A stretch of 64,000 nt of DNA from Dehalococcoidales bacterium (lineage in GTDB: Bacteria; Chloroflexota; Dehalococcoidia; Dehalococcoidales; RBG-16-60-22): NCBI GenBank assembly GCA_028712355.1, contig JAQTQH010000003.1, positions 2,117 to 66,116 on the forward strand, written 5' to 3'. Both the position numbers and the translations under genes were made by a program. Every line of letters starts with the position of its first letter. The stretch's first letter is position 1. Positions 8,124-64,000 of the stretch are shown here, in pieces. The notes under the pieces were generated by a model. It worked only from the letters and a program-made list of their open reading frames with translations. It ran no database searches and was not told the DNA's origin.

Positions 8124-8738
8124 TTGAGTACTTTAAGTAAAGGACGCTTTGGTGAGGAACTCGCCGGGCCTCTGGCAAATGTTGTCGTGGCGCGCCAGAA
8201 ATCGCCCTCGGAGAGAGGTTTTATTTTTCTGCTGGGGCAGGTCAAGAAGCTTTTCGACCTCGGTGCCGGCGATGATATCTACCAGTTTATCGCTTCGGCA
8301 TTACAGGAATTCCTCAATGCCGGCGTCGTGCTGGCCAATGCCTATAACGAGGTGAAAAACACGCTCGACGTGCGGGGAGTGGCCGGGCTGGGCAGTTACA
8401 CGGAAAAGATTTTGCACATGATAGGCAGCAACCCGGCGGAAATATCGACGTTGGTGAGTGAGGCATGCCGCCAGGGGCTGTCCGCCGGGAGGTTGACCAT
8501 CCTCGCCGACGGTGTTTACGAGCTGGCCAATCACACTATGCCGTTGATAGTGTGCCGGAACCTGGAAGAGCTGCTCGGCATCAGGTTTGTTTATGCGATG
8601 GGCTTGACCTGGCATGAGAAGCTGCTGGGCAGCGTGGCTTTTTTGAACCGGGAGGAAATCCGTGATCCCGCCGTAGTCGAGACTTTTTTGAACTATGCGG
8701 CGCTGGCAATCCGCCAGCGTATGGAAAAAGAAAGCTGA
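8124..8738 (+). CDS. GAF-like domain protein (tentative)
   Basis: 204-aa ORF with a TTG start 7 nt after AGGAG (8112-8116). C-terminal half has GAF-like layout (LLGSVAFLNREEI...ETFLNYAALAIRQR). Followed by a terminator. Confidence 0.4.
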   Translation: MSTLSKGRFGEELAGPLANVVVARQKSPSERGFIFLLGQVKKLFDLGAGDDIYQFIASALQEFLNAGVVLANAYNEVKNTLDVRGVAGLGSYTEKILHMIGSNPAEISTLVSEACRQGLSAGRLTILADGVYELANHTMPLIVCRNLEELLGIRFVYAMGLTWHEKLLGSVAFLNREEIRDPAVVETFLNYAALAIRQRMEKES

Positions 8739-8768
8739 CGGTATAATTTAGATTTTTTACAGGGACGA

Positions 8769-8801
8769 AAAGCCTCCGGAAACGGGGGCTTTAGTTTTTT
8801 T
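8769..8801 (+). terminator. rho-independent terminator
   Basis: AAAGCCTCC-GGAAAC-GGGGGCTTT followed by AGTTTTTTT, 30 nt after the stop at 8738. Confidence 0.55.
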
Positions 8802-8836
8802 GCCGGGATGTGTAGCTTTGTCTTCAATTCGGTCTC

Positions 8837-49487: not shown

Positions 49488-50144
49488 CTAAGCCGGTGGA
49501 TTAAGATGGCGGACGAAGGACTCAATCAGGTAGTACATGGCAGTCGCTCCGCCGTCCTGCACGCCGATGCTCTTGTCCTGGAACCACTTTGCCCGGCCGA
49601 ACTTGGCTTTCATGTCAGCGGTAGCTTTCATGCCCGCCTCGGCGGCTTTGACGGTAGCGCTCAGCGCGGCTTTCGCATCGCCTGACGCGCTCTCCTTCTT
49701 GAAAGCTTCGACGGCAGGAACGAGGGTATCAACCACGGTCTTGTCGCCTACTTCCGCCTTGCCGCGCTTCTTGATGCTTTCGATAGCGCCGTCGCCGAGT
49801 GCCGCCAGGTCTATGATTTCGATCTGCTTTTTACCGAAGGCGGCTTTGCCGGCGCCCATAAAGGCATTGGCGAGGACGGTGCCGAATGTGGACGGGCTGA
49901 TCTTGTTGATGTTCAAGCCGCAGTTCATCAGCAACTTGCCGATATCGTCTTCCTGCTGGGTCGTCAGGTATTCCAGCATCGCTTTGCTGGTAAGCTCGAT
50001 GGTGACGCCCAAATCGCCGTCGCCGAGGATGGAATCGAGCTGGCGCAGCTCTTCGGCACGCCCTTTGAAATCAGTTGCGGCTTGTTTGAGAATAGCAGCA
50101 AACCGGGCAACATCGAGGGTGTCTGCGCTCATGCTTTCCTCCAC
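49488..50144 (-). CDS. dhaL: dihydroxyacetone kinase, ADP-binding subunit
   Basis: LDSILGDGDLGVT motif; all-helical Dak2 domain. Confidence 0.9.
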   Translation of the reverse strand: MEESMSADTLDVARFAAILKQAATDFKGRAEELRQLDSILGDGDLGVTIELTSKAMLEYLTTQQEDDIGKLLMNCGLNINKISPSTFGTVLANAFMGAGKAAFGKKQIEIIDLAALGDGAIESIKKRGKAEVGDKTVVDTLVPAVEAFKKESASGDAKAALSATVKAAEAGMKATADMKAKFGRAKWFQDKSIGVQDGGATAMYYLIESFVRHLNPPA

Positions 50145-51139
50145 TGGAGCAGGAAGGGGGAGAAGGCAGGGGCATCAAGCAGCTTCTTGAACTCGTCGTT
50201 GAGGCGCAGCAAAGTAATAGAAGCGCCCGCCATTTCCATGGAAGTGGCGTATTCACCGATGAAGGCGCGGTAGACCTTGATGCGGTAGCCTTTAAGAATG
50301 TCATAGGCTTTGTTATAGAGGATGTACAACTCTTCAGGGGGGGTCGCGCCCAGCCCGTTGACCAGCACAGCAACTTCATCATTGGCTTTAAATGGCAGGT
50401 CTTTGACAATTTTTTCGGTCATAATGGTTGCCACTTCATCTGCGGTCTTCAGCTTGGTGCGCTCGATACCCGGCTCGCCGTGGATGCCCATGCCGATTTC
50501 CATTTCATCTTCGGCGATGGTGAAGGTGGGCTTCCCCGCCGCGGGGATGGTGCAGGGGGTGAGCGCCACGCCCAGGGTGCAGGTGTTATCAATAACGGCA
50601 TCGGTGGTCTTTTTGACCTCTTCCAGGCTGGCGCCGGTATCGGCTTTGGCGCCGGCGATTTTATAGGCGAAGAAGATACCAGCCACGCCGCGCCGCTTGT
50701 CTTTTTCAGAGCGGGGCGCGGAAGCGACGTCGTCTTTGGCGATGCACATCTGGACGGGGATTTTCTCCATTTCCGCCATTTCCGCCGCCATTTCAAAGTT
50801 CATAGTATCACCTTGGTAGTTGCCGAAGAGGTAGAGCACGCCTTTGCCGCCATTGACTTCCTTGGTCGCGGCGAGCATGTCCGCGGCACCCGGCGAGGAG
50901 AAAACGTTGCCCACCGAAACACCGTCCAGTAAACCGGGACCGACATAGCCCAGGAAAACCGGGATGTGTCCGGAGCCGCCGCCGGTGCAGATAGCCACTT
51001 TCCCTTTAATAGGAGCATCCGCCCGGACCAGGGCGCGCGGGCTTTCCTTACTGGCGCGTAGGTGGTTGGGATAAGCTTTGAGGATACCGGACAGGGTCTC
51101 ATCGACAACTTGGAACGGGTCATTAATCAATTTTTTCAT
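50129..51139 (-). CDS. dhaK: dihydroxyacetone kinase, DHA-binding subunit
   Basis: Dak1 motifs: KKLINDP, GGGSGHIP, GIHGEPG. Confidence 0.9.
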   Translation of the reverse strand: MKKLINDPFQVVDETLSGILKAYPNHLRASKESPRALVRADAPIKGKVAICTGGGSGHIPVFLGYVGPGLLDGVSVGNVFSSPGAADMLAATKEVNGGKGVLYLFGNYQGDTMNFEMAAEMAEMEKIPVQMCIAKDDVASAPRSEKDKRRGVAGIFFAYKIAGAKADTGASLEEVKKTTDAVIDNTCTLGVALTPCTIPAAGKPTFTIAEDEMEIGMGIHGEPGIERTKLKTADEVATIMTEKIVKDLPFKANDEVAVLVNGLGATPPEELYILYNKAYDILKGYRIKVYRAFIGEYATSMEMAGASITLLRLNDEFKKLLDAPAFSPFLLQWRKA

Positions 51140-51290
51140 GCTGCTGGTTCCTCCCGATTAGCTATTCATCTTTTGACTTGTAGAAATGCCTGCGGTGGCT
51201 TTTCCAGAAACCCATTCTAGCAGGGTGGTGAGAAGTAAGTCAATGTTGGGGCACTGTCCTATCGACTTATTCTTTAAGGAGTAATATAAA

Positions 51291-51506
51291 ATGTCAGGGC
51301 AATCAATGCGAATAAGCGGACTCTTTCCGCCGGTTTTGGGGGCGCTGCGCGAGCGCAGCAGCTATCGTGATAACTGTGCCGTCTGCTATTACTGGTCGGT
51401 CTGTCGCGGCTGCCGGGCAATTGCCCTGGCATATGCGCGGGGCAACGGTAAAGAGAACTATCTCGGTGCCGACCCGCAATGCCCGTATTTCAGAGAAGCT
51501 ATTTGA
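51291..51506 (+). CDS. 71-aa stand-alone SPASM-like Cys-rich peptide (possible gene remnant)
   Basis: CAVCYYWSVCRGC...DPQCPYF equals the C-terminal half of a SPASM/twitch domain. AAGGAG lies 9 nt upstream. No radical-SAM core upstream. Confidence 0.35.
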   Translation: MSGQSMRISGLFPPVLGALRERSSYRDNCAVCYYWSVCRGCRAIALAYARGNGKENYLGADPQCPYFREAI

Positions 51507-52569
51507 GCGGTATTCCTGATTCTATCTTGCCGTCAGGCCAGGCGCGGGAACCCGGCGGCAGGTCTTTCCTGATGGTGATGTTATCGCCGACCACGCAGCC
51601 TTGCAGCCGGCTTCCTGCAATCCTGCTGCCTGCGCCGATAATGCTCCGGCGAATGAACGACTTGTCGTCGATGGTCACGCTGTCCCACAGCACCGAGCCT
51701 TCGATAACGGTATCCTTACTCACTTTACACCCGGCGCCCAGCACCGCTGGCCCGGTGATGCGCGCCCCGGGGGCGATTTGACAACCTGCACCGATGAGGA
51801 CTGTGCCGGTCAGCCGTGCCGCCGGATGGATTTCCGTCTTTCCTTCGGTAATAATAGCCGTACCCCGCTCGCGGAGTAAATCGTCATGCGCCTGCAAATA
51901 CTTTTGCGGCGTGCCGATGTCAATCCAGTAAGCCTGTGAAGGATAAGCCAGCACCGGCGCGCCATTTGCGAGGAGCGGCGGGAAGACATCACGCTCGAAC
52001 ATGAAGCGGGTCGCCGTCGGTATCATTTCCAGTACGTCCGGCTCCATGATATAGATGCCGGCGTTTATCATGTTGGTCGTCACCTTTTCCGGCGGCGGCT
52101 TTTCCACGAAACGCTGCACCATGCCGCTGTCATCGGTTTCCACCACTCCGAATGCGGTGGGATTATCGACCGGCGTGAGGGCGATGCTTAATTTGGGCTT
52201 GGCCTCGCGGTGCCGCTTTATCATGGCGGTCAGGTCGATTTGGGTCAGCACGTCGCCGTTCAGGACGAGGAAAGTATCGTCGAGGCGGGCAGCGGCGAGT
52301 TTGACCGCGCCTGCGGTGCCCAGCGGCGAATCCTCCACCGAGTAGGTGAGACGGACGCCCAATCGTGCACCGTCCCCCATGCATCGCTGAATCGCCGCCG
52401 GCTGGTAGCCCATCGCCAGGACGACGTCCGTGATGCCGTGCTGTTGCAGGTAGCGCAGCAGGTGCTCCAGAAAGGGACGGTTCAGCACCGGGACGATTGC
52501 CTTGGGGAGGTTGCAGGTAAGCGGTCTGAGCCGTGTGCCTTCCCCGCCAACCAGAATGACTGCTTTCAT
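51499..52569 (-). CDS. NDP-sugar pyrophosphorylase (nucleotidyltransferase plus left-handed beta-helix)
   Basis: ORF trimmed to the ATG at 52569 (MKAVILVGGEGTRLRPLT). C-terminal hexapeptide repeats. Confidence 0.9.
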   Translation of the reverse strand: MKAVILVGGEGTRLRPLTCNLPKAIVPVLNRPFLEHLLRYLQQHGITDVVLAMGYQPAAIQRCMGDGARLGVRLTYSVEDSPLGTAGAVKLAAARLDDTFLVLNGDVLTQIDLTAMIKRHREAKPKLSIALTPVDNPTAFGVVETDDSGMVQRFVEKPPPEKVTTNMINAGIYIMEPDVLEMIPTATRFMFERDVFPPLLANGAPVLAYPSQAYWIDIGTPQKYLQAHDDLLRERGTAIITEGKTEIHPAARLTGTVLIGAGCQIAPGARITGPAVLGAGCKVSKDTVIEGSVLWDSVTIDDKSFIRRSIIGAGSRIAGSRLQGCVVGDNITIRKDLPPGSRAWPDGKIESGIPLK

Positions 52570-52635
52570 AGCTGTCTCTTTTGTCCATAGTGTAGCATTA
52601 TGATATGTTAATTCCAAATATTCATTAAGATAGCT

Positions 52636-52703
52636 GTCATTCCCATTAAGGCGAAAATTCACAGGTAAGAATACTGGATTCTCAGGTAAATCCTGAGAAT
52701 GAG
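52636..52703. repeat. degenerate type B palindromic repeat
   Basis: GTCATTCCCATTAAGGCGAAAATTCACAG...CTGGATTCTCAGGTAAATCCTGAGAATGAG. Confidence 0.45.
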
Positions 52704-52718
52704 ATATGATAGCATAAA

Positions 52719-52738
52719 CTTGATAAATAATTATTAAG
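52719..52738. promoter_or_regulatory. imperfect inverted repeat CTTGATA-N6-TATTAAG upstream of dnaJ (HAIR-like?)
   Basis: One mismatch in a 7-bp inverted repeat, lying just upstream of the -35 element. Confidence 0.3.
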
Positions 52739-52753
52739 TTATTTGATAGGGTA

Positions 52754-52783
52754 TTGACAAATTATTTGAAAGCGTTTTAGAAT
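52754..52783 (+). promoter_or_regulatory. sigma70-like promoter of dnaJ-hspR-clpB
   Basis: TTGACA, 18 nt spacer, TAGAAT, lying 27 nt before the ATG. Confidence 0.5.
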
Positions 52784-52809
52784 TAAAATGGAATTGTGGA
52801 GATACAGCT

Positions 52810-53799
52810 ATGTCTAAAGACTATTACAATACCCTCGGTGTCAAACGGGATGCCAGCGCGGCGGAGATTAAGCAGGCATACCGCCGGCTGGCGCGCAAGT
52901 ATCACCCGGACGTTAATCCTAATGATAAATCGGCGGAAGCAAGGTTCAAGGAGATTAACGAAGCCTACGAAGTGCTTTCCGACGCCGGGAAGCGTAAGAA
53001 ATATGACCAGTTCGGCGACAAGTGGCAGTACGCCGACCAGTTCGCACAGGCGGGACAATCGGGCAGGCAATGGGACTTTGCCGATTTCAGCGATGGCGGC
53101 GGTGCCAGTTTCCAGTCCGGTGATATGGGCAGCCTCTTTGAGGAATTGCTGCGCGGCACGGGAGCCGGTGGTTTTGGAAGGCGTACCCGCACCGCGCCGC
53201 AGCGCGGACAGGATATTGAATCGCCGGTTGAGGTGACGCTGGAGGAGGCTTTTACCGGTACCCGGCGGATGATGAGCCTGCAATCCCAGGAACCGTGCGC
53301 CACCTGCGGCGGCACCGGGCGTATTCAGAATGTAGCCTGCTCGGTGTGCCGGGGCGCGGGGGCGGCAGCATCTCTGAAGCGGCTGGAAGTGACCATTCCT
53401 GCCGGCGTGGATAACGGCTCCCGGGTGCGTATCGCCGGGAAGGGGCAACCCGGTTACCGCAGCGGTCCCGCCGGTGACCTCTACCTGGTTATCTCCGTCC
53501 TGCCGCACGCGCAGTTTGAACGCAAGGGTGATGAGCTGCATGTAGAGGTGCCGGTCCCGTTGACGTTAGCAGTACTGGGCGGCGAAGTCCAGGTGCCCAC
53601 GCCCAGGGGCAAACTATCACTTAAAATCCCGCCGGAGACCCAGAACGGACGGGTCTTCCGTCTTTCGGGACAGGGCATGCCCCATTTAAGTGATTCCGCC
53701 CGCGGCGATATGTTCGCCACGGTGAATGTAGTATTACCCACCAGACTATCTGATGAAGAAAAGGAGATTTTCCGCAGGCTTAAAGAGCTACGCCATTAG
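52810..53799 (+). CDS. dnaJ: DnaJ-class co-chaperone with reduced zinc-finger region
   Basis: J-domain DYYNTLGV...KYHPDVNP. Gly/Phe-rich region. Only two CxxCxGxG motifs ([16 protein letters not shown]). C-terminal substrate-binding domains. Confidence 0.9.
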
Positions 53800-53814
53800 C
53801 AGAGAGGTGATGGC

Positions 53815-54138
53815 ATGGAGAGAAACAGGAGAGAGACTGAGCCGTGTTACGTTATCAGCGTCGCGGCACGGATGCTCAATATGCAGACGCATACGTTGCG
53901 CTACTATGAGAAGATTGGCATAATAGAGCCGCACCGCTCGCGGGGCAATATCCGCCTGTATTCCGAAAGAGACATCGCCATGGTGCGCCGGGTGAAATCA
54001 TTTACCGAAGACATGGGGGTGAACCTGGCGGGTGTGGAGGTTATCCTGCGGATGCTCGGGAATATCAGCCAGCTTCAGGGAGAGCTGGAGCAGATGCGGG
54101 AAGAGTTGAAGAAACTAAAAGAGGAGACCGGTCAATGA
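53815..54138 (+). CDS. hspR: MerR-family heat-shock regulator (HspR-like)
   Basis: YVISVAARMLNMQTHTLRYYEKIGII HTH. C-terminal coiled coil. Position between dnaJ and clpB. Confidence 0.8.
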   Translation: MERNRRETEPCYVISVAARMLNMQTHTLRYYEKIGIIEPHRSRGNIRLYSERDIAMVRRVKSFTEDMGVNLAGVEVILRMLGNISQLQGELEQMREELKKLKEETGQ

Positions 54139-56606
54139 AACAGGAAAAATTCACCGAACAGGCGCAGCAGGCAATGGCGGCGTCTCAGGAATTGGTACAG
54201 CAGTATCATCACAACCAGTGGGATGTGGAGCATATCCTGATGGCGCTGGTGATGCAGCAGCAGGGGTTGGTCGGCGATATTCTCAAAGAGCTCAAGGTCA
54301 ATCCTGAATCTATCCGCAATCAGGTCGAGGCGGTTCTCGACCGGATACCGAAGGTGGCGTACGAAGCCGGGCAGATTTATGCCACGCCGCGCGTCGCCCA
54401 GCTGCTCAAGAGGGCGGAGGAGGAAGCCGCCCGGCTTAAGGACGAGTTCATCAGTACCGAGCATATCCTGATTGCTGTTGTCGGCGAGGAAAAGGGCGAA
54501 GCCGCCCGTATCCTGCGCAGCGTCGGTATCGACCAGGAGAAAGTGTACCGGGCGTTACAAAAACTGCGCGGCGGGCACCGGGTGACCGACAGCCGCGCCG
54601 AAAGTAAGTACCGCTCGCTGGAAAAATACGGGCGTGATCTTACCGAACTGGCACGGCAGAGTAAACTGGACCCGGTCATCGGGCGGGAGGAAGAAATAAA
54701 ACGGGTCATGCAAATCCTCACCCGGCGCACCAAGAACAACCCGGTGGTCGTTGGGGAAGCCGGCGTGGGCAAGACTGCCGTCGCCGAAGGACTCGCCCAG
54801 AAAATCGCCGCCGATGATGTGCCGGATTCGCTTAAGGGGCGGCGGGTCGTTGCGCTGGATATGGGCGCGCTGGTGGCGGGCAGCAAGTTCCGCGGCGAGT
54901 TCGAAGAGCGTCTCAAAGCCGTGATGGACGAGGTGCGCCAATCGCAGGGCGAAGTCATCCTGTTCATTGATGAAATCCATACCGTCGTCGGGGCGGGCGC
55001 TGCCGAAGGCGCCATCGATGCCAGCAACATGCTCAAACCGGCGCTGGCGCACGGAGAGTTACAGTGCGTGGGCGCGACTACGCTTGATGAATACCGCAAG
55101 TTCATCGAGAAGGACAAGGCGCTGGAGCGCCGCTTTCAGCCGGTCTTCCTCAATGAACCGACCGTCGAACAAACAATCCAGATACTGCGCGGGCTGCGTC
55201 CCCGTTATGAATCGCACCACAAGATTAAAATCAGTGACGAAGCTTTGGAATCGGCGGCTAAGCTCAGCCAGCGCTATATCACTGACCGGCACCTGCCGGA
55301 CAAGGCAATCGACCTGATTGATGAGGCGGCTTCCAAGCTGCGCATCGATTCCGAGAGCGCCCCGCCCGAGGTCAAGGAGCTGGAACAGAAACTCAAGCAG
55401 ATGGCCAATGAGGAAGATGCCGCTTCCCAGCGCGGGGAATATGAGCAGGCAGCCAAGTTGAAATCGGAAAGACTGAAGACAGAAGAAAAATATAATGGGG
55501 CGAAGAGCGAGTGGCTGAAGAAGGAGAAGCTCGCCGAGGAAGTGGGCGCGGAGCATATTGCCAAGCTTATCTCCAACTGGACGGGTATCCCGGTCTCTCA
55601 GATGCTGGAAGGCGAAGCGCAGAAATTGGTCCACATGGAAGACCGCCTCCATGATAGGCTGGTCAACCAGGAAGAAGCCGTTAAAGCCGTCTCTGAAGCC
55701 ATCCGCCGCAGCCGCGCCGGGCTGAAAGACCCGCGCCGTCCCATCGGAAGTTTTCTTTTCCTGGGTCCGACGGGCGTGGGCAAGACGGAGCTGGCGCGCA
55801 CGCTGGCGTGGTTCCTTTTTGATGATGAGAACGCCATGGTCCGGCTGGACATGTCCGAATACCAGGAGAAGCACACCGTATCGCGGCTCATCGGCGCGCC
55901 GCCCGGCTATGTCGGTTTCGAGGAAGGCGGGCAGCTTACCGAGGCAGTGCGGCGGCGCCCTTACCGCGTCATCCTTCTGGATGAAATTGAAAAGGCGCAC
56001 CCGGATGTCTTCAATTCGCTGCTCCAGGTCCTGGATGACGGACGCCTCACCGATGGACAGGGTCACACTGTCGATTTCAAGAACACGGTGGTCATCATGA
56101 CCAGCAACGCCGGCGTCGAGCTTATCCGGCGCGAAGCAGCGCTCGGTTTCACGACGCCGAAAGAAGGCGCCAGAGCGAAAAAACAGAGTTACGAAGACAT
56201 GAAAGACAAGGTGATGGCTGAGGTCCGCAAGCTCTTCCGCCCGGAATTCCTTAACCGGCTCGATGATACCATCGTCTTCCACGAGCTGAGCGAGGAACAG
56301 CTACGTAAGATTGTCGACTTGATGGTGACAGATTTGCAAAAACGGCTCGGTGAGCGTAAAGTAGGTCTGGAACTGACCGGTGATGCCAAGTCCTGGCTGG
56401 CGAAAGAAGGTTACGACCCGGTCTACGGCGCGCGTCCTTTGCGCCGGGTCATCGAGCGGTATGTGGAAAACCCGCTGTCCAGCCAGATACTGAGCGGTGA
56501 ACTCAAGGATGGTGATACCGTTAGGGTCGGAATCAGCAACGGTAAACTGACCTTTAATAAAGAACCGGTGAATAAAGCCGGCTCCCGGCGGCGCAGCCCG
56601 GCTTAA
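54135..56606 (+). CDS. clpB: ATP-dependent chaperone ClpB
   Basis: Clp_N repeats. NBD1 GEAGVGKT. Middle coiled-coil domain. NBD2 [13 protein letters not shown] overlap with hspR. Confidence 0.95.
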
Positions 56607-56664
56607 GCGAGGAAAAGTGAATTTGTCTTGATGCCCGGGCACGGCAAAAAGCAGATTCCCCAAG

Positions 56665-57264
56665 ATGGAACAGGACAGGAAGACAAAGAGTACTTCACGC
56701 ACGGCGTACGTCATCGGCATTGGCGGCGCCGTGCTTACTATTGTAATGGCTTTTGCCGTGGTCTATTACGGCGAATTGCTACGTGAGCTGAGCGCATACG
56801 GCTATACCGGGGCATTCTTAATCAGCATCCTGGGGGGCGCGACCATTATCGTGCCGGTGCCCATGCTGGCGGTGGTCTTCGCCCTCGGCGGCGTCATGCC
56901 GTATCCCTGGCTGGTGGGGCTGGCCGCCGGGCTCGGCGAAACAATCGGCGCCGTTATCATTTATTTAACCGGATACGGTGGTTTCCGCGCCGTTCGCCAT
57001 AGCGGCAAAGACTTTATCCAGCGGTCTTACGATAAGCTCCTTTTGCTTATGGAGAAAAGAGGCTCGCTGACGCTGTTTGTACTCGCCGCGGTTATCAACC
57101 CGTTCTTTTATCCGGCGGCGCTGGCGGCAGGCGCGCTCCGCTTCGGCATCAAGAGATACTTCATCATTTGCTTTATCGGCAAGACCATCAAGGGAATGTC
57201 GGTGGTCTATTTCGGCTACTGGGGTATCCGTGAACTTCTCCAGTGGCTCGGTATCGCCTGGTAA
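56665..57264 (+). CDS. DedA/VTT-domain membrane protein
   Basis: YGYTGAFLISILGGATIIVPVP...GLGETIGAVIIYLTGYGG pattern. Confidence 0.65.
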   Translation: MEQDRKTKSTSRTAYVIGIGGAVLTIVMAFAVVYYGELLRELSAYGYTGAFLISILGGATIIVPVPMLAVVFALGGVMPYPWLVGLAAGLGETIGAVIIYLTGYGGFRAVRHSGKDFIQRSYDKLLLLMEKRGSLTLFVLAAVINPFFYPAALAAGALRFGIKRYFIICFIGKTIKGMSVVYFGYWGIRELLQWLGIAW

Positions 57265-57270
57265 AGCGGA

Positions 57271-57912
57271 CTACTTCTCTTCAATGGTTATCCGGATGAT
57301 GCGGTCGCCCATGAATCCGGATTGTCCCAACTCGCCGGGGGTCAGCTTTTCCAGGACGTCCATTCCTTCAACAAGTTGTCCGAATACAGAATGTTTGCCG
57401 TCCAGGTGCGGCTGCGGAGCGTAAGTGATGAAGAACTGGCTGCGGTTGGTATTGGGCCCGGCATTAGCCATAGAGAGTGCTCCGGTACCGTGCTTGCGCT
57501 GGGAGAATTCATCGGCGAAAGCATAGGTGAGCTCGGTAAATCCCGTGCCGGGAACAGCGCCCGCCTGCGCCATGAAGTCGGGGATGACGCGGTGGAAGGT
57601 AGAGCCGTTATAGTAACCATCGCGGGAAAGGAATACGAAGTTGTTCACCGTCTGCGGCGCGTCCTTGGCAAAGAGCTCCAGCACCAGATTGCCTTTCACA
57701 GTTTCAATCGTGGCGGTGTATTGTTTGTTGGTATCAATGGCCATTGCGGGCGCCTTGGAATAGGTCTTCGGCTGCGAAGTGGCGGTGGGCGTATAGGTAT
57801 AAGTAGTGGTCTGCGAGGCCGGTTTCCCGCTGCAGGACGACGAGAAAAACAAACTCATAATTAGAATTCCTCCCAGTAGAATGAAGATAAATCTATTGTG
57901 CATAAATATCAC
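57271..57912 (-). CDS. cyclophilin-type peptidyl-prolyl isomerase lipoprotein
   Basis: Lipobox FFSSSC. FHRVIPDFMAQAG and SMANAGPNTNRSQFFI motifs. Confidence 0.9.
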   Translation of the reverse strand: MIFMHNRFIFILLGGILIMSLFFSSSCSGKPASQTTTYTYTPTATSQPKTYSKAPAMAIDTNKQYTATIETVKGNLVLELFAKDAPQTVNNFVFLSRDGYYNGSTFHRVIPDFMAQAGAVPGTGFTELTYAFADEFSQRKHGTGALSMANAGPNTNRSQFFITYAPQPHLDGKHSVFGQLVEGMDVLEKLTPGELGQSGFMGDRIIRITIEEK

Positions 57913-58049
57913 CCTTTCCGTTTACAGGATTTTAGTCAAATTGTAGCCTATTCTCGCCGCGGAAGCAATCAGCAGCGAACCGGGTGATTTAACCTGTGAG
58001 ATTATGTTGCGGACTGCTCATGCTTTGTGTTAAATTAGATGTGCGACAT

Positions 58050-58125
58050 GGGGCTGTAGCTCAGTTGGGAGAGCGTCTGACTGGCAGTCAGAAGGTAAGG
58101 GGTTCGAACCCCCTCAGCTCCACCA
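58050..58125 (+). tRNA. tRNA-Ala (anticodon GGC)
   Basis: Acceptor GGGGCUG/CAGCUCC with G3:U70. D arm GCUC-AGUUGGGA-GAGC. Anticodon loop CUGGCAG. T arm AGGGG-UUCGAAC-CCCCU. Discriminator A, then CCA. Confidence 0.9.
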
Positions 58126-58412
58126 AAGGGGACGATACCTAGAACTACCCGAAATTCCAAAGATTGGCCGGGTAAAGTCTTTTCAATAACCTTCCCATGG
58201 TCTGTTACGAAATAAACCTCTCAACAGAGCTAATGCCCGTCTCTTTCGAGTCCTCCATGTTCCGCCGATGCGATCTCATCATGCGAAGTCGGACAGGGGC
58301 TCAATCGAAACGACACGCTCGATTTAAATCCATTGACCCTGAGTATTTTATCAATTAAGAGAATTTTCAGGTACAAAGGGCTAGCCGTGTCCAGTCCCAT
58401 TCGTGTTCCGTT

Positions 58413-60146
58413 TCACTTGCGGCTCTGTCGTCTCATGTGTTCCACGGCTTTGGCAAAATCAGGCTTCTCGGCTGCTTTTCTCCATTCATCCCAGAAGGCA
58501 ATAGTTGAACTAATCGGTTTCTCCTTTGGGGGATTCACCCTGATACGGCTCGGAAGTAGGACACAGTCTCCAACAACGAGTACTTCCCCCGTGTCAAGGA
58601 TTGGCAGCGCATCCATTAACCCTGCCAAACTTTCGGGCATCAGCCTTTTAACCGTGCCTTGGTCATCGCCATTTGTCAGCCGAAGAGCGAGAAGGTTGTT
58701 ACACTGACTCAGTATTGTAGTACTCACATCGGAAGGTCGCTGGCTGACGACTACCATTGCCACGCCGTATTTTCGTCCTTCTTTTGCGATCTTCTCGAAG
58801 TTCTCGATTGCCCTTTGCTCTACAGGATTCTGACCTTCTTTATTAGGCAAGTAGACATGGGCTTCGTCACAAACAAGAGCCAGCGGCTTACGTACATTTA
58901 CTTCAGTCCAGAATTGAACCTGATAGACGACTCGTGCCACAAGTCCGACCATAACTGGCAGTATATCTGCTGGCACTTCGGAGAAATCTATGACTCTGAT
59001 TCGGGATTCGGAAAAGTCCATCAGCCGGCATATCATTTTCGCCATAGCATCGTATGTCTGCTCCGTTGTGGGGATCTGAAAGAGAAAACCGTAACGCTTG
59101 TCATCCCGTTTGCTTTGTAGACGGATGAGCAAGCGGCTGAACTGTCCGTAAAATACTCCTTGCTTCTCTCCGCCTCTTGCACCAGGAACCATCTCATCAT
59201 TAAGACGTCTCAATTCGGAGATGACATTTTCAAACGGAAATGGAATCGGGCTATCAAGAGTGAGAGCACTCAACATCTCGGTCTTTCCTTCAGCCTCAAG
59301 GAACGCCTTCTTTTGAGACAACACTGCATCTTGGAAAGCCATGACCTGATTGTGAGCAGTAAATTCACTTCGGTCAATGAACATGGATTGTGACTCTTCA
59401 GCATTTAGCAGCCAGTATGGTAAATAGAGTAACTCATTGGCTGCCGTTCCGAGTTCCTCCGGACCAGGAACCCGAAGATGACTCGCATATGTGAGCCTAC
59501 TGTACTCACCATGCAGATCAAAGACGATCAGATTTGAGGAAGGCAGCTTAGCGGCTTGCTCCAAAATTGCTGCCACCAACCAAGATTTGCCAGAACCTGT
59601 GCTGCCGAGCAACGAAGCGTGGCGTTGAAAGAGCCTATTGCCATCTAGGTATGCTACAGCTTTCTCATCCATTGTGTAATGTCCCATCTCTAAAGAATGC
59701 TCGGTCTTGCTTTCGACTGATAGTAAATTCATGAATGCCTGCAATTGAGCGTCCCTTAAGACGTTGCACCCACAGTCTATCTCAGGTACTTGGAAAATGG
59801 ATCGGCTAAAGCACGGTTTCTGTCCTGCATCAAGCGCCACCCTCCCAACCAGGGTGACTCTGACGGTGTTGAGCACACTTTCGCGCGGCATTGCCAATTC
59901 CGCACCTTCGGCCTCCATAGGTACAGCCTGCTCGATTGTTTCCTCCATCACAGGCGACTTCATAACGCTGTCAATCATTCCAATGAGCCATTCCTCGATG
60001 GCACCCGGAAGGCGAAGCGCTACAAGTTGACCTACCCGGGCTCTTCGCAGTTCTTCATCCTTATCAACTTGAATACTGACTCTTCTCGTGTCTACCGCAC
60101 GAACTCGTCCAAGGGCATATGACTGGTCGAAGGTAAAAATCGCCAT
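58413..60146 (-). CDS. herA: HerA-family (FtsK/HerA) ATPase, partner of SIR2
   Basis: N-terminal barrel-like segment (GRVRAVDTRRVSIQVD...VGQLVALRL). Walker A LLGSTGSGKSW, Walker B LALVCDEAH, VVSQRPSDV. Starts 3 nt after the SIR2 stop. Confidence 0.85.
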   Translation of the reverse strand: MAIFTFDQSYALGRVRAVDTRRVSIQVDKDEELRRARVGQLVALRLPGAIEEWLIGMIDSVMKSPVMEETIEQAVPMEAEGAELAMPRESVLNTVRVTLVGRVALDAGQKPCFSRSIFQVPEIDCGCNVLRDAQLQAFMNLLSVESKTEHSLEMGHYTMDEKAVAYLDGNRLFQRHASLLGSTGSGKSWLVAAILEQAAKLPSSNLIVFDLHGEYSRLTYASHLRVPGPEELGTAANELLYLPYWLLNAEESQSMFIDRSEFTAHNQVMAFQDAVLSQKKAFLEAEGKTEMLSALTLDSPIPFPFENVISELRRLNDEMVPGARGGEKQGVFYGQFSRLLIRLQSKRDDKRYGFLFQIPTTEQTYDAMAKMICRLMDFSESRIRVIDFSEVPADILPVMVGLVARVVYQVQFWTEVNVRKPLALVCDEAHVYLPNKEGQNPVEQRAIENFEKIAKEGRKYGVAMVVVSQRPSDVSTTILSQCNNLLALRLTNGDDQGTVKRLMPESLAGLMDALPILDTGEVLVVGDCVLLPSRIRVNPPKEKPISSTIAFWDEWRKAAEKPDFAKAVEHMRRQSRK

Positions 60147-60149
60147 AAT

Positions 60150-61295
60150 CTAGCCTCCTATGATCACCTTCTTGAATTCGGCCACGTCCCATAGCGCGGA
60201 ATTCTCTATGTAGAGGGTCCCCGCGTACCGAGAGTTGGATATCGATGTCTGTTCGGGCGCTCCAGTGCCTTTGCAGACTAGCCAAAGGTTGGGTGCCGCA
60301 TCTAATATAGTCTTAATACGTTGGTTGGAATCTTTGGTGATAATCAAACCATGGCTCGATTGTTCGATTAGCTTACGCCTGATGTACCGCTCGAGGTGAA
60401 CGTCATTAAATCCATATCCTAAGAAGAGAAACCGGCTTTCTTTTTCGATCGCATCATCTGCTCGCTGAAGAAGTTCCTGCCTGTACAACTGTAGCTTCTC
60501 GTGCTTGGAGACGCCAGGTGTTATCATGACCCTCTGGAGAAAGCTTGGCGGATTGAGCGCCCATTCGTTGTTCTCGACGACCTTCGTCCCAAAGGTAAAG
60601 TAATTTAGCGAACCATGGACCTTGTAAAGCCTGATGTGTTTCCGGACGGCATACAAGTGTCTTACTCGATTCGACACCACACTTCGAGTACTCACCCACA
60701 TGGATTGCTCTGCTGCATGCCAATCGACTGTGCGCATGACACCACCTGAGAACCCGTTTGTGTATGGTATGCCTATGTGTTCACAGGCGTGTTCCATTAC
60801 AAGGTCGTAATTAGGAGTGATTACGTTGAGGACAGGATCAGCCTCGGGTAGCGTATCCACCAAGACTTTCAATAGTGTACCGGCTGGCCACTCATTCTGG
60901 CCATCGACTACTTTGAGGCAACAATCATAACTTACTGCAGATATGAACCTACCAGTTGCTTCTGTAATCTTCTCCACTAGGCTTTGGTCAAGGACTCCAT
61001 TCATGGCGGACTCAAGGTCTTGACCTTTGTACAGTGCATCTGCGACTGCCTCCCATTCCCGTTTCTCTGGGGCGCTTACGAGTAAAGGGGGGACTCTGTC
61101 AACCAGTACCTTGGCCAATTCGTGCATACTAAAGCGGTCATCGAGTGCACAGGACATCCCGCTTCCGAAGAGCACTACAGGCTTCTCCCGAAAGAAGTTC
61201 TTTAATGCCTCGAAGGCTATTTCTTTTGTCAAAGCCTCGCGAGCATAAACCACTATCAGCCTCCGAGAGCCTTTGCCAATGATGCTTCGGCTCAT
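60150..61295 (-). CDS. SIR2-like (SIR2_2 family) NADase-type defence protein
   Basis: VVLFGSGMSCA, ITPNYDLVMEH, KVHGSLNY and FLFLGYGFNDVHL motifs. ATG at 61295 preferred over GTG at 61367, which would leave only 26 bp to the divergent gene. Confidence 0.8.
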   Translation of the reverse strand: MSRSIIGKGSRRLIVVYAREALTKEIAFEALKNFFREKPVVLFGSGMSCALDDRFSMHELAKVLVDRVPPLLVSAPEKREWEAVADALYKGQDLESAMNGVLDQSLVEKITEATGRFISAVSYDCCLKVVDGQNEWPAGTLLKVLVDTLPEADPVLNVITPNYDLVMEHACEHIGIPYTNGFSGGVMRTVDWHAAEQSMWVSTRSVVSNRVRHLYAVRKHIRLYKVHGSLNYFTFGTKVVENNEWALNPPSFLQRVMITPGVSKHEKLQLYRQELLQRADDAIEKESRFLFLGYGFNDVHLERYIRRKLIEQSSHGLIITKDSNQRIKTILDAAPNLWLVCKGTGAPEQTSISNSRYAGTLYIENSALWDVAEFKKVIIGG

Positions 61296-61305
61296 TTTAA
61301 TGGTT

Positions 61306-61329
61306 GACCGTCCTTGAGACAAGACGGTC
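61306..61329. promoter_or_regulatory. inverted repeat GACCGTC-N10-GACGGTC in the divergent control region
   Basis: Perfect 7-bp arms. Lies between the SIR2 start (61295) and a TATAAT box (61354-61359) that precedes the wHTH gene. Confidence 0.4.
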
Positions 61330-61393
61330 TTTATTTTCCGTTCTGCCAAGTAGTATAATGCAATCACTAACGTTAATACAAGGATATTAGTTA

Positions 61394-61615
61394 ATGATTA
61401 CAAACGGGACTGATAAGACCGCCTTTACGCACAAAGTTAAAAAAATACTGACTAAAGAACCAGGGTTAAGCGTAAAGGAATTATCGGATAGATTGAGTAC
61501 CAACCGCCAGTTTATGGCCGGCATGCTGAAGGCTCTTGAGGAGCGCGGAGAGGTTACTTATCGTCAGGTGGGGCCGGCACGTATTTATTACGCCACTAAT
61601 TCTCCTAAGGAATAA
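61394..61615 (+). CDS. small winged-helix DNA-binding protein (candidate controller/regulator)
   Basis: 73 aa. LSVKELSDRLSTNRQFMAGMLKALEERGEVTYRQVGPARIYY has helix-turn-helix plus beta-wing layout. AAGGA lies 8 nt upstream. Confidence 0.6.
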   Translation: MITNGTDKTAFTHKVKKILTKEPGLSVKELSDRLSTNRQFMAGMLKALEERGEVTYRQVGPARIYYATNSPKE

Positions 61616-61651: not shown

Positions 61652-62506
61652 ATGTTAATTGTATTATCACAGCGAATTGATATTAAGTCTGATTACGATG
61701 ATGTCCCGTTTTCGTCATATCACTTCCCGAAACAGTACCGAAATCTTATTCATTCAGGGGATCGATTTATCTATTACCAAGGCGACCGTTGGAAGAAAGA
61801 GCATCGCTACTATTTCGGCTGCGGAGTAATAGGTAAGGTGTATTCTGCTGCCAACAACACGTTTTACGCAGACATCGTCGATGGCGAGACTTTCGCTCAA
61901 AAGGTTCCAATTTATCATCCAGAAGGTGATTTCTACGAATCACTCGATTACAGCAGCGTGCGAAAAAAGCCGAATCCACCTTGGCAAAGTTCTATAAGAC
62001 CATTGTCTGAAACAGCTTTCTCCACAATTCTAGCAGCCGCTAAAGTTGGTACATCTTCATTGCAGGTTATCAGTCAAATTGAAACTTCTTCGAATGCGAT
62101 TGATACGTTAAGGACTCTGAATATTTTATATGCCGGATTGAAGCCGGAAGTTCGGGCAAAGAGGCTGGCCAGCCACCTGGACCGTGGTGATTCGGTTACA
62201 CGAGCTCTAAAGCAACTTCTTGGTAGCAAATGTCAAATATGTGGTTGGAACGGTTTCAGAAAACGAGATGACACGGAATTCATCGAGGCTCACCATCTGG
62301 TTCAGATATCCGAGCGTCATGTAGATTCACTTTGCACAGAGAATATCATACTCGTGTGTCCTAACTGTCATCGTGAAATTCACTATGGAGAAGATATAGA
62401 GATTAGAGACGATGGCAATTTGAATTTTGTGCGTCTTTCAAACAAGATTGTACGTATACCGAAAAACACAATTCAATTATTAGAGAGTAAGGTCATTTTA
62501 CATTGA
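61652..62506 (+). CDS. HNH nuclease with unassigned ~135-aa N-terminal domain
   Basis: C-terminal CQICGWNG...FIEAHHLVQIS...NIILVCPNCHREIHYG (McrA-type HNH). N-terminus YHFPKQYRNLIHSGDRFIYYQGDR...YYFGCGVIGKV matches no motif I recognise. Confidence 0.8.
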   Translation: MLIVLSQRIDIKSDYDDVPFSSYHFPKQYRNLIHSGDRFIYYQGDRWKKEHRYYFGCGVIGKVYSAANNTFYADIVDGETFAQKVPIYHPEGDFYESLDYSSVRKKPNPPWQSSIRPLSETAFSTILAAAKVGTSSLQVISQIETSSNAIDTLRTLNILYAGLKPEVRAKRLASHLDRGDSVTRALKQLLGSKCQICGWNGFRKRDDTEFIEAHHLVQISERHVDSLCTENIILVCPNCHREIHYGEDIEIRDDGNLNFVRLSNKIVRIPKNTIQLLESKVILH

Positions 62507-63321
62507 GTCGTATAACGAGCCTAAATGGTAACTTAAACGGTAAGTTGATGAAAGAAGCAGTCAATATTAATCAGCTATTAGATGGTTTCCAGTTGGAGAT
62601 AATCAGCCAGACTATTTTGGAATGGTGGAACTCCTCGGGCAGACGGAATTTCCCTTGGAGAGAGACTCATGACCCCTTTAAAGTCATGATTGCAGAAATA
62701 TTACTCCACCGAACAAGAGCTGAACAGGTTGTTCCACTGTACCAAGTTTTTATAAAGAAATATTCTGATGTTCATGCAATCGCGCGAAGCTCGCCAGATG
62801 AGCTCGAAGAATCGTTTCGTTCTGCTGGACTTCATTGGAGATGGAAACTACTCCACGCTATGTCTATTGATATTGAAACGAGATTTAATGGACAGATACC
62901 TCATGATTTTGAAGATCTGACATCACTACTAGGTGTGAGTCATTATATCGCCTCTGCCGTGAGATGTTTTGCCTTTGGTTATCCTGATGTTTTACTCGAT
63001 ACTAATACCGTCAGAGTGTCGGGACGTATCTTTGGATTACCTATTACGGACTCATCCAGACGAAGTATTTTATTCAGGAAGGTCATTCAAAGGCTTATGG
63101 ATGCTGAACAGTGCAGCGACTTCAATTTTGCACTGATTGATTTTGCAGCGAAGGTGTGTCGACTAAAGAAACCTCACCATGACGAGTGCCCCATTTGCGA
63201 ATCCTGCGTCTTTTACCAGAAAATAGCCGGTGTAAATAAGAATACTAAAATTAATACAACACCACTAAAAGAGATAAGACGCTCGCACCAGCAACAATTG
63301 AGCCATATGGAGGCTCTGTAG
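62503..63321 (+). CDS. HhH-GPD DNA glycosylase (EndoIII/MutY/Mig family) with Fe-S Cys cluster
   Basis: FPWRETHDPFKVMIAEILLHRTRAEQV. HhH LLGVSHYIASAVRCFAFG. Catalytic-Asp context LLDTNTVRV. CRLKKPHHDECPICESC. TTG start overlaps the HNH stop (TTGA); alternative ATG at 62548. Confidence 0.85.
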   Translation: MSRITSLNGNLNGKLMKEAVNINQLLDGFQLEIISQTILEWWNSSGRRNFPWRETHDPFKVMIAEILLHRTRAEQVVPLYQVFIKKYSDVHAIARSSPDELEESFRSAGLHWRWKLLHAMSIDIETRFNGQIPHDFEDLTSLLGVSHYIASAVRCFAFGYPDVLLDTNTVRVSGRIFGLPITDSSRRSILFRKVIQRLMDAEQCSDFNFALIDFAAKVCRLKKPHHDECPICESCVFYQKIAGVNKNTKINTTPLKEIRRSHQQQLSHMEAL

Positions 63322-63322
63322 T

Positions 63323-64000
63323 ATGAAGCACACAATTCCGGTCATTGACCTATTTGCCGGGCCAGGGGGTCTAAGCGAAGGATTTAGCTGCTTTCGAGAT
63401 GATTCAGGAAAGAATCCCTTCAACGTTGTCCTATCTATAGAAAAGGACCCTATTGCTCATCAAACGCTAGAGTTGAGGAGTTTCTTCCGATTTCTTGACC
63501 GAGAGTCGGATGCATATGATTATTTCAGGTATCTACGCAGGGAAATTACTAAAGAGGAACTCTTTAAGAAGCACCAAGAACAGGCTATCAAGGCAAAAGC
63601 TGCTTGTTGGATGGCAGAGCTAGGTAGCCCAGACCTTGCATATTCGACGGTGAAGAGCCGCATAAACTCAGCGATTGGCAAGAGTGCGTTGTGGCTCCTT
63701 ATTGGAGGGCCTCCTTGCCAGGCATATTCAGTAATTGGCCGTGCCCGTGTAAGAAGTGTTGAACCTAAACAATATGAGAACGATAATCGTCATTTCCTAT
63801 ACAAAGAATACCTTAAAATAGTAGCAGACTATTCCCCTCCCATGTTTCTTATGGAAAACGTCAAAGGGTTGCTTTCCACCCAAGTAAACGGTCTCAATAT
63901 GTTTGCAAAAATCGTGAAAGACCTCGAGGCCCCCGGCGTGGCAATCGCTGGAAGGAAGTCGAATGATCCTACTGTGAAATATGAAATATTCTCATTATCA
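63323..64000 (+). CDS. DNA (cytosine-5)-methyltransferase (partial; runs off window end)
   Basis: Not in the ORF track because it is open-ended. My translation: MKHTIPVIDLFAGPGGLSEGF (motif I), LLIGGPPCQAYS (motif IV), FLMENVKGLLS (motif VI). The ATG lies 1 nt after the glycosylase stop. Confidence 0.9.
   Translation, partial: MKHTIPVIDLFAGPGGLSEGFSCFRDDSGKNPFNVVLSIEKDPIAHQTLELRSFFRFLDRESDAYDYFRYLRREITKEELFKKHQEQAIKAKAACWMAELGSPDLAYSTVKSRINSAIGKSALWLLIGGPPCQAYSVIGRARVRSVEPKQYENDNRHFLYKEYLKIVADYSPPMFLMENVKGLLSTQVNGLNMFAKIVKDLEAPGVAIAGRKSNDPTVKYEIFSLS

Follow-up and report, generated by a model that had tools for sequence, protein, structure and literature searches.

A putative modification-sensing reader-HNH nuclease in a C5-methyltransferase operon of a Dehalococcoidales bacterium

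The closest described counterparts of the protein analysed here are the EVE-HNH restriction enzymes of the VcaM4I/TspA15I group (6yex; PMC7897488, PMC6765204), single chains of ~280 to 300 amino acids (aa) that act independently of nucleoside triphosphates (NTPs) and consist of an N-terminal barrel of the PUA superfamily, a helical linker, and a C-terminal HNH domain. In VcaM4I, the EVE domain flips 5-methylcytosine (5mC) or 5-hydroxymethylcytosine (5hmC) into a pocket of P24, W82, and Y130, while a linker helix restrains and auto-inhibits the HNH domain (PMC7897488). Characterised PUA-HNH enzymes are rarely found near methyltransferases, with <6% having one within 3 kb (PMC6765204). A protein of the same general layout is encoded on contig JAQTQH010000003.1 of a Dehalococcoidales bacterium (assembly GCA_028712355.1), within the stretch of 64,000 nucleotides that was analysed as a whole (hereafter the window), where its gene is followed by those for a HhH-GPD glycosylase and a C5-cytosine methyltransferase. 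We read this 284-aa protein, at about an even chance, as a nuclease that senses modified DNA within one polypeptide chain, needs no NTP, and accompanies defence systems based on C5-methylation.

The N-terminal domain (N-domain) of the window protein matches the VcaM4I structure in Foldseek with a probability of 1.0 and a TMq of 0.58. The protein differs from the VcaM4I group in that its reader has no detectable sequence similarity and no match to Pfam EVE, its HNH domain is closer to that of EcoKMcrA, an additional conserved tail is present, and its family lies in a methyltransferase, repair, or defence context at 16 of 21 loci. EcoKMcrA (6ghc), a 5mC-directed HNH enzyme that likewise has two domains and about the same length, is the closest solved relative of the HNH domain and the helices preceding it, whereas its N-terminal reader has a different fold and matches the window N-domain neither by sequence nor in Foldseek. 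The MspJI family, in which an SRA-like reader is joined to a Mrr-type PD-(D/E)XK nuclease, resembles the window family as a PUA-superfamily reader-nuclease of which about half of the members, 5mC/5hmC-dependent enzymes, adjoin 5mC methyltransferases and vsr genes; the authors considered this association non-incidental and left it unexplained, it is partly dispensable, and a helicase gene also adjoins MspJI (PMC2938202). No homology to the MspJI family was detected, and the window family differs from it in having an EVE-like reader, an HNH nuclease, partner operons of Mza and DISARM type, and forms that lack a nuclease or are fused to AIPR or GHKL.

Two defence machines provide further points of comparison. 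The N-domain of class 1 DISARM DrmA (7s9v/7s9w; PMC12458937) is likewise EVE-like and attached to a DISARM machine, and it matches the window N-domain in Foldseek (probability 1.0, TMq 0.59 to 0.61) at ~10% identity. However, it is fused to DrmA in systems with an N6-adenine methyltransferase, whereas the window reader family occurs as a separate gene after DrmB in class-2-like operons with a C5-methyltransferase, or fused to HNH in Mza-type operons. The mzaABCDE genes form a validated defence system (Gao et al. 2020, cited in PMC9523054). Computational work has described related clusters in which Z1, DUF4420, C5-methyltransferase, AIPR, and MORC genes are found with genes for repair endonucleases (PMC9523054). 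Relatives of the window locus carry homologues of MzaB (GHKL), MzaC (Z1), MzaD (DUF4420), and AIPR, while these systems, as described in PMC9523054, have no HNH or EVE-like component.

Domain architecture of the reader-HNH protein

The open reading frame (ORF; 61652-62506, forward strand) starts with ATG and represents a real gene, since the identical protein (100%) has been deposited as 'HNH endonuclease' from a Dehalococcoidales metagenome-assembled genome (MAG) and more than 100 full-length homologues exist at 45% to 83% identity, in Chloroflexota, Bacillota, Pseudomonadota, Planctomycetota, Omnitrophota, and one archaeal MAG. No close homologues were found on plasmids or phages by tblastn, only members of the wider family with 24% to 26% identity. 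An AlphaFold2 model built with the family alignment reaches a pLDDT (predicted local distance difference test) of 92.5 for the full-length protein and 89 for residues 1-140, and conservation was called from an alignment of 48 homologues.

Residues 1-135, which a first-pass annotation made from the sequence had described as beta-rich and free of recognisable motifs, fit that description. Searches of Pfam, NCBIfam, PADLOC, and the PDB, with the single sequence and with profiles, gave no match outside the HNH region, and the domain is beta-rich in the model. About 20 of its residues are invariant or nearly so (L5, Q7, Y15, D17, Y23, H24, P26, Y29, G36, F39, Y41, Q43, G44, R52, Y54, G56, G58, A73, E96, P109, W111, and R116). 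To place the fold, the N-domain alone was searched with Foldseek, a comparison that the annotation had proposed; it returned PUA-like folds, closest to EVE and ASCH, at a probability of ~1.0, template modelling (TM) scores of 0.5 to 0.6, and 7% to 14% identity. The matches comprise the EVE proteins THYN1 (3eop), Rpa0253, and PH1033, MJECL36, DrmA, the EVE-HNH enzyme VcaM4I (6yex), ASCH proteins, and McrB N-terminal domains, with a probability of 1.0 for the EVE structures 3eop, 2p5d, 2gbs, 1wmm, and 6yex. With the full model, the PDB matches were ScoMcrA, MJECL36, TagI, the archaeal McrB N-terminal domain, DrmA, and the N-domains of Lon and cereblon. The SRA-HNH enzymes TagI and ScoMcrA were matched only by the full-length model, and no structure of the B3/EcoRII type or SRA fold appeared in the search with the N-domain alone. 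The model places the N-domain in the PUA superfamily, as a divergent EVE-like branch that had gone without annotation. Two invariant residues, P26 and F81, occupy sequence positions similar to those of VcaM4I pocket residues, which is a possible lead and no more.

The domain belongs to a large family. A profile search with the N-domain recovered 724 clusters (representatives at 50% identity) among 1.84 billion proteins, 42 of them below 1e-30, and despite these ~700 clusters the reader family has no Pfam, NCBIfam, or PADLOC model; for the window protein, PADLOC models cover the HNH core only. The partners of the N-domain are HNH, a variant HNH, NOV_C/DUF3883 PD-(D/E)XK, AIPR, GHKL, or none. 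Among 60 distant members, 36 carry the NOV_C/DUF3883 PD-(D/E)XK domain, 11 an HNH domain, and one a C5-methyltransferase domain. The usual architecture is therefore a reader plus a nuclease, as in NTP-independent modification-dependent restriction enzymes (PMC6765204, PMC7897488). One 439-aa member (P0246) has an extra N-terminal region of ~170 aa ahead of the reader-HNH unit. The first-pass annotation had offered two readings of the protein, and one of them, a type IV nuclease of the PUA/EVE-HNH class, agrees in architecture with the Foldseek results, while modification-dependent cleavage itself is something we infer.

The linker forms four helices in the model (residues 135-145, 149-160, 165-178, and 181-190). 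The auto-inhibiting linker helix of VcaM4I may offer a parallel, by analogy only. The HNH domain is matched by Pfam HNH (PF01844) at residues 194-244 (E 2e-7, 31.2 bits against a cut-off of 21.4) and by PADLOC mREase_IV (E 6e-10); of the PDB sequences, the EcoKMcrA HNH domain matches it best (6ghc, E 4e-10, residues 162-249). The catalytic residues are intact: C194, C197, E212, H214, H215, C236, H240, and H244 are invariant in the 48 homologues, and N231 and C239 are kept in at least 90% of them. The earlier assignment of the last ~70 aa to a McrA-type HNH was right as to type, but the core is not C-terminal, since it is followed by a 36-residue beta/alpha tail that is conserved across the family.

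Genomic context of the family

Scanning one genome per species yielded 43 loci, to which contigs of metagenomic homologues were added, and the neighbourhoods were read by tblastn with each neighbouring gene and, for part of the loci, from annotation. At 16 of 21 distinct loci where the N-domain is joined to HNH, the neighbours include genes for a C5-methyltransferase, for T:G repair (Vsr or Mig), or for Mza or DISARM systems, so the homologues are not scattered without such neighbours. The first-pass annotation had proposed a census to see whether homologues always co-occur with a C5-methyltransferase and a glycosylase. The association with a methyltransferase and T:G repair holds, but Vsr is commoner than the glycosylase and the operons are larger, of Mza and DISARM type.

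The larger operons are seen in the contigs of close relatives, which were read in place of the region downstream of the window. In L045 and L046, whose HNH proteins are 70% and 74% identical to the window protein, the HNH, glycosylase, and C5-methyltransferase genes are followed by genes for a HATPase_c protein and a Z1 protein. In L044 (80% identical, with the same SIR2/HerA and winged helix-turn-helix (wHTH) flanks), the order is HNH, glycosylase, HATPase_c, Z1, and DUF4420, with the methyltransferase absent from the operon. By their PADLOC matches, these downstream genes are MzaB, MzaC, and MzaD (E down to 2e-263). L044 (6001-12849) has MzaB directly after the glycosylase, that is, a T:G glycosylase without an adjacent methyltransferase. 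Since close relatives continue into Mza homologues, the four genes from wHTH to methyltransferase are probably the 5' end of a larger operon, and by analogy the window operon, which the window cuts inside the methyltransferase, would continue into MzaB/MzaC/MzaD-type genes. The four-gene unit had been put forward as a candidate variant system, but it is not self-contained.

Elsewhere the same components recur in other orders. The full Mza set is present in L001, L006, and L053: L053 and L006 have Mza genes, methyltransferase, Vsr, and HNH, with AIPR between MzaD and the methyltransferase in L006, and L001 has methyltransferase, MzaB, MzaC, MzaD, AIPR, and HNH. The P0011 contig carries Mig, methyltransferase, and HNH, convergent with Z1 and DUF4420 genes, and L055 carries HNH, HTH, Vsr, and methyltransferase. 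In L036, a methyltransferase and Vsr are found with the HNH gene ~2 kb downstream. L051 has a ScoMcrA-like SBD-HNH (sulfur-binding domain-HNH) gene, HNH, methyltransferase, and a DndH-like gene. The HNH gene of L003 is convergent with DrmA, DrmB, and Vsr, L008 and L010 have DrmA- or DrmB-like neighbours, and L002 has a GmrSD neighbour and a methyltransferase ~1.8 kb downstream. L011 consists of methyltransferase, Vsr, and HNH. In this locus of Propionispora sp. 2/2-37 (8001-8827), frameshifts break the reader-HNH gene into ORFs of 168 aa and 85 aa; it has probably become a pseudogene, next to methyltransferase and Vsr genes that are both intact.

Context of this kind is missing from five loci, namely P0013, L004, L005, L007 (truncated), and L009. 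Solitary copies amid housekeeping or metabolic genes include P0013 in two contexts, L005 beside pheST, and a copy on a Vibrio plasmid; the idea that this plasmid member bridges to VcaM4I was not borne out. The 284-aa HNH protein P0013 (L047-L049) is found unchanged in two unrelated settings, one in a P450/TetR/glycosyltransferase region and the other beside a TIR-domain gene, which indicates recent mobility as a single gene.

The most constant neighbour across the family is the T:G repair gene, not the methyltransferase. Vsr lies within ~30 to 650 bp in 17 of 24 non-HNH loci and in several HNH loci, Mig takes its place in the clade of the window locus and on contig P0011, and a NudG/MutT-like NUDIX gene does so in L059-L061. 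HNH proteins that are 50% to 60% identical stand beside methyltransferases that are only 25% to 37% identical and have different target recognition domains (TRDs). The window methyltransferase belongs to one family with those of L045, L046, L053, and L006, and this holds for the TRD as well.

N-domains without a nuclease occur as proteins of 133 to 192 aa, mostly 147 or ~188 aa, or joined to a C-terminal domain of ~140 aa. In more than 20 Clostridia-type loci the gene stands directly after DrmA and DrmB (PADLOC E 3e-216 and 5e-69) and is followed by a bona fide Vsr (TIGR00632, 140 to 144 bits against a cut-off of 98). A full class-2-like DISARM operon reads C5-methyltransferase, (AIPR), DrmE, superfamily 1 (SF1) helicase, DrmA, DrmB, reader, and Vsr or NUDIX; the methyltransferase is then ~10 kb away, while the reader still adjoins Vsr. 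In L059-L061 (10568-10966), the gene after the reader encodes a 132-aa NUDIX hydrolase instead of Vsr, closest to NudG (E 1e-29, under the cut-off) and MutT. NudG is a pyrimidine dNTP diphosphatase, and this NUDIX protein may be a 5-methyl-dCTP sanitiser. The assembly collection lists the 183-aa reader protein of these loci in 56 blocks. L016 (678-6186) contains a DrmMII methyltransferase, an AIPR (MzaE-like) gene, an ORF for a 153-aa DrmE fragment, a short DrmB-like remnant, a reader with C-domain, and Vsr; it seems to derive by deletion from a DISARM operon, with the reader-Vsr pair outliving DrmE, helicase, DrmA, and DrmB. The ~140-aa C-domain ('MKMSYSYKPVLILALL', residues ~200-340 of proteins of 339 to 342 aa) follows the reader in the fusion proteins of Clostridial DISARM operons (L012-L025 and L057, 10001-11029) and has no sequence relative in Pfam, PADLOC, NCBIfam, or the PDB; a likeness to the ScoMcrA sulfur-binding domain was unsupported by the Pfam and PDB searches. 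Further fusions combine the reader with AIPR (P0226, 940 aa) and with GHKL HATPase_c_3, HEF_HK, and a second HATPase_c (P0310, 1137 aa).

Function of the reader-HNH protein

If the protein is a modification-sensing nuclease, its N-terminal EVE-like beta-barrel would flip a base out of the DNA into a conserved aromatic/polar pocket, and the helical linker would join this reader to the McrA-type HNH, which would cut nearby DNA. The target would most likely be DNA with a C5-modified cytosine not made by the host, the candidate ligands being 5hmC or its derivatives, or 5mC outside the contexts written by the neighbouring methyltransferase. Its gene would be the first of an island-borne operon, followed by the Mig-type T:G glycosylase, the DrmMII-family C5-methyltransferase and, by analogy, MzaB/MzaC/MzaD-type genes. 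In such an operon the nuclease would cover phages that escape methylation-based restriction through cytosine hypermodification, and the glycosylase would repair deamination damage caused by the methyltransferase.

Several features of the family are consistent with this. Solitary copies suggest that the enzyme does not cut unmodified DNA, since such copies would otherwise not be tolerated. The nuclease appears independent of the methyltransferase, because L044 keeps an 80% identical nuclease without one and because the reader does not co-vary with the TRDs. Its co-residence with an apparently intact C5-methyltransferase implies that the enzyme must spare the host's methylated sites or prefer 5hmC-type bases. 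Co-transcription with a methyltransferase had been thought unusual for a type IV enzyme, but the MspJI family provides a precedent (PMC2938202). In that family, M.MspJI had no methyltransferase activity when assayed, and LpnPI co-exists with an active GGNCC methyltransferase, whose modified sites the authors infer to be uncut (PMC2938202).

Other observations weigh against an independent nuclease of this kind. The window protein has no match to Pfam EVE (PF01878), and the sole sequence link to EVE is transitive, through sub-threshold matches of distant members (3 of 60; best E 1.4e-4; P0239 with 21.2 bits against a cut-off of 23). The tie to methyltransferase, repair, and defence genes (16 of 21 loci) is far tighter than that of PUA-HNH enzymes (<6%; PMC6765204). 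The nuclease-less forms are confined to DISARM operons, where DrmB always precedes them and Vsr or NUDIX follows; this, together with the AIPR and GHKL fusions, suggests an integrated sensor subunit and not an independent type IV enzyme. Further, generic recognition of 5mC would be toxic beside an apparently intact methyltransferase.

These points lead to a second, less likely explanation, in which the EVE-like domain is an integrated sensor of methylation state that reads the mark of its own methyltransferase, or the absence of that mark, and so tells self from non-self for machines of the Mza type and the class-2 DISARM type. In the window version, binding of host 5mC would keep the fused HNH off, or would recruit or license Mza proteins. 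More than 20 DISARM-like operons have a nuclease-less form of 147 to 190 aa, or a form with a non-nuclease C-domain, as the next gene after DrmB, which favours such a role, as do the EVE-like N-terminal domain of class 1 DrmA (PMC12458937), a Foldseek match to the window N-domain, the fusions with AIPR (P0226), GHKL ATPase (P0310), and once a C5-methyltransferase, and the persistence of the association while gene order varies. However, solitary nuclease-fused copies without methyltransferase or partners need an autonomous function, L044 retains its nuclease without a methyltransferase, and no mechanism is known by which 5mC binding would switch off an HNH domain. The differing TRDs imply that a sequence-specific self mark is not what is read, although a context-independent 5mC mark still could be. 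Extended to the whole EVE-like family (~700 clusters at 50% identity), the explanation would make it a shared cytosine-modification sensor of class-2-type DISARM and Mza/MORC-Z1-AIPR systems, free or fused to HNH, PD-(D/E)XK, AIPR, or GHKL and always beside a Vsr, Mig, or NudG-like gene, which in the window would couple methylation state directly to the HNH domain and would be no independent type IV enzyme; we think this possible but rather unlikely.

A role in damage control, which we consider improbable, is suggested by the neighbouring repair genes. Here the domain would recognise 5mC, hemi-deaminated sites, or T:G mismatches and work with Vsr, Mig, or NudG-like enzymes as an accessory against the mutagenesis that C5-methylation causes, a parallel being MBD4, in which a methyl reader and a T:G glycosylase are joined. 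It is consistent with the constancy of the T:G repair gene (Vsr at 17 of 24 non-HNH loci, with Mig or NUDIX substitutes) and with the reader remaining beside Vsr in DISARM operons whose methyltransferase is ~10 kb away. It leaves unexplained both the fusions to HNH, PD-(D/E)XK, and AIPR effectors and the solitary copies without Vsr or methyltransferase; moreover, Vsr and Mig need no known reader partner, and adjacency may reflect only the gathering of accessory genes at operon ends.

The other reading in the first-pass annotation, a classical type II enzyme whose N-domain reads unmethylated sequence and whose HNH cuts while the methyltransferase protects and the wHTH protein acts as a C-protein-like controller, can be set aside as very improbable: the co-directional, tightly spaced C5-methyltransferase and small HTH gene, a weak PADLOC REase_II match (E 3e-3, HNH region only), and the single methyltransferase family, TRD included, of the window, L045, L046, L053, and L006 speak for it, but the N-domain has the fold of a modified-base reader, N-domains 50% to 60% identical stand beside methyltransferases with unrelated TRDs (25% to 37% identity), the reader occurs without a nuclease and is shuffled among HNH, PD-(D/E)XK, AIPR, and GHKL modules, solitary copies and the L044 operon lack a methyltransferase, and the wHTH protein is MarR-like (weak MarR, FeoC, and TrmB matches) and not an XRE-type C-protein.

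Island setting, neighbouring genes, and implications

The features of the window around the reader-HNH gene are listed in Table 1. An island that contains everything downstream was probably inserted at the tRNA-Ala gene, which would form its left boundary. GC content is ~0.56 to 0.57 in the core genome upstream, 0.49 in the SIR2 and HerA genes, and 0.41 to 0.45 in the wHTH, HNH, glycosylase, and methyltransferase genes, and these two compositional layers suggest two successive acquisitions at one tRNA site. The HNH, glycosylase, and methyltransferase genes, alike in GC content, were apparently acquired as a group. No integrase turned up among the ORFs of at least 120 aa at 50000-58200, which carry no annotation, and scans for promoter and terminator consensus sequences found nothing over background that marks the operon limits.

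Table 1 Features of the window at the tRNA-Ala island
Feature	Position	Strand	Evidence
tRNA-Ala (GGC)	58050..58125	+	ARAGORN
HerA-type ATPase of SIR2-HerA defence pair	58413..60146	-	PADLOC HerA E 7e-219, Pfam DUF87 E 6e-26
SIR2-like protein, HerA partner	60150..61367 (maximal ORF)	-	PADLOC SIR2 E 9e-131, Pfam SIR2_2
Small winged-helix protein, 73 aa, putative operon regulator	61394..61615	+	Weak Pfam matches
EVE-like (PUA superfamily) reader domain, residues 1-135	61652..62056	+	AlphaFold2 model, Foldseek, conservation, profile search
Helical linker, residues 136-190, conserved LDRG and ALK motifs	62057..62221	+	Model, alignment
McrA-type HNH (beta-beta-alpha-Me), two CxxC zinc-binding pairs, residues 191-248	62222..62395	+	Pfam, PDB, PADLOC
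C-terminal tail, residues 249-284, three short strands and helix, KNT motif, and stop codon	62396..62506	+	Model, alignment
Mig.MthI/MutY-catalytic-domain-like HhH-GPD glycosylase	62503..63321 (likely start ATG 62548)	+	PDB, PADLOC, Pfam
C5-cytosine methyltransferase, DrmMII-like, 5' 226 codons, gene cut by window end	63323..64000	+	Pfam, PADLOC

A complete SIR2-HerA anti-phage pair lies directly upstream of the wHTH/HNH operon and divergent from it, and is 90% to 97% identical in the L044 contig. It is a separate neighbouring system, its GC content of 0.49 being unlike that of the HNH block. The true SIR2 start is probably ~40 codons further in, since the L044 homologue has 364 aa and the PADLOC alignment begins at residue 46.

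The small wHTH gene that the annotation had placed upstream of the HNH gene is confirmed by the ORF map, with a spacer of 36 nt. Its Pfam matches (MarR_2, E 3e-5; MarR, FeoC, and TrmB) range from E 3e-5 to 1e-2 and are all under the cut-offs, and it does not match PADLOC MzaA. The gene is kept at 78% identity directly 5' of the HNH gene in L044 and L046, and its product probably regulates the operon.

The glycosylase is matched over its full length by Mig.MthI (1kea, E 3e-36), by the MutY catalytic domain (E 3e-37), by PADLOC PDLC03398 'Type II nicking endonuclease' (REBASE 'V'-type, E 1e-36), and by Pfam HhH-GPD (33 bits against a cut-off of 26.2). Its catalytic Asp is present, the MutY C-terminal domain is absent, and the NCBIfam mutY match is under the cut-off (155 against 286 bits). 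The protein resembles Mig.MthI, encoded beside M.MthTI, and the dcm-vsr pairs in its HhH-GPD motif, catalytic Asp, and C5-methyltransferase neighbour, and Vsr occupies the same slot in sister loci; a glycosylase beside a C5-methyltransferase is thus a known arrangement. On the basis of the Mig.MthI match and the Vsr in sister loci, it is predicted to be a T:G (U:G) mismatch glycosylase, the counterpart of Vsr for the C5-methyltransferase. Unlike Mig.MthI, it has His for the second Cys of the iron-sulfur loop. This loop reads C-x6-H-x2-C-x5-C (63090-63200, residues ~197-215), with a conserved His at the position of the second Cys of MutY and EndoIII, and C-x5-H-x2-C-x5-C in the glycosylases of L044, L045, and L046.

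The overlap of the HNH stop with the glycosylase start (TTGA), from which translational coupling had been proposed, exists if the first TTG at 62503 is used, but homologue starts point to ATG 62548, residue 16 of the longest ORF (257 to 272 aa depending on the start). Since the three closest glycosylase homologues start at this ATG position, leaving a 41-nt gap, coupling of the HNH and glycosylase genes is doubtful and the overlap is probably an artefact of longest-ORF calling; the co-directional organisation as an operon is not in doubt.

The methyltransferase has motifs I, IV, and VI intact in its 226-codon part and matches Pfam DNA_methylase (E 9e-21) and PADLOC DrmMII (PDLC02649, E 3e-42). 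It is 76% identical to the full-length enzyme of L045, which is followed there by MzaB and MzaC homologues.

Neither the pairing of an EVE-like reader with HNH nor the presence of a modification-dependent nuclease next to methyltransferase and vsr genes is new in kind. What appears new is the reader family itself, its embedding in Mza-type and class-2-like DISARM operons, its place beside a T:G repair or NudG-like gene, and its free, AIPR-fused, and GHKL-fused forms. No description of these features was found in the EVE census (PMC7641849), the modification-dependent nuclease screen (PMC6765204), or the YprA/DISARM survey (PMC12458937), which cover part of the literature, and the terms 'very short patch', 'glycosylase', and 'MORC' do not occur in the EVE census.

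The means by which DISARM and Mza-type systems discriminate between host and foreign DNA are poorly understood, and a dedicated, conserved reader that accompanies the versions with a C5-methyltransferase is a concrete candidate for that step. The puzzle of the MspJI family, in which modification-dependent nucleases stand beside 5mC methyltransferases and vsr, extends to a second, unrelated reader-nuclease lineage, which makes chance a less likely explanation of the association. If specific for one cytosine modification, members of the family would be additions to the toolbox of modification-dependent nucleases for epigenome mapping.

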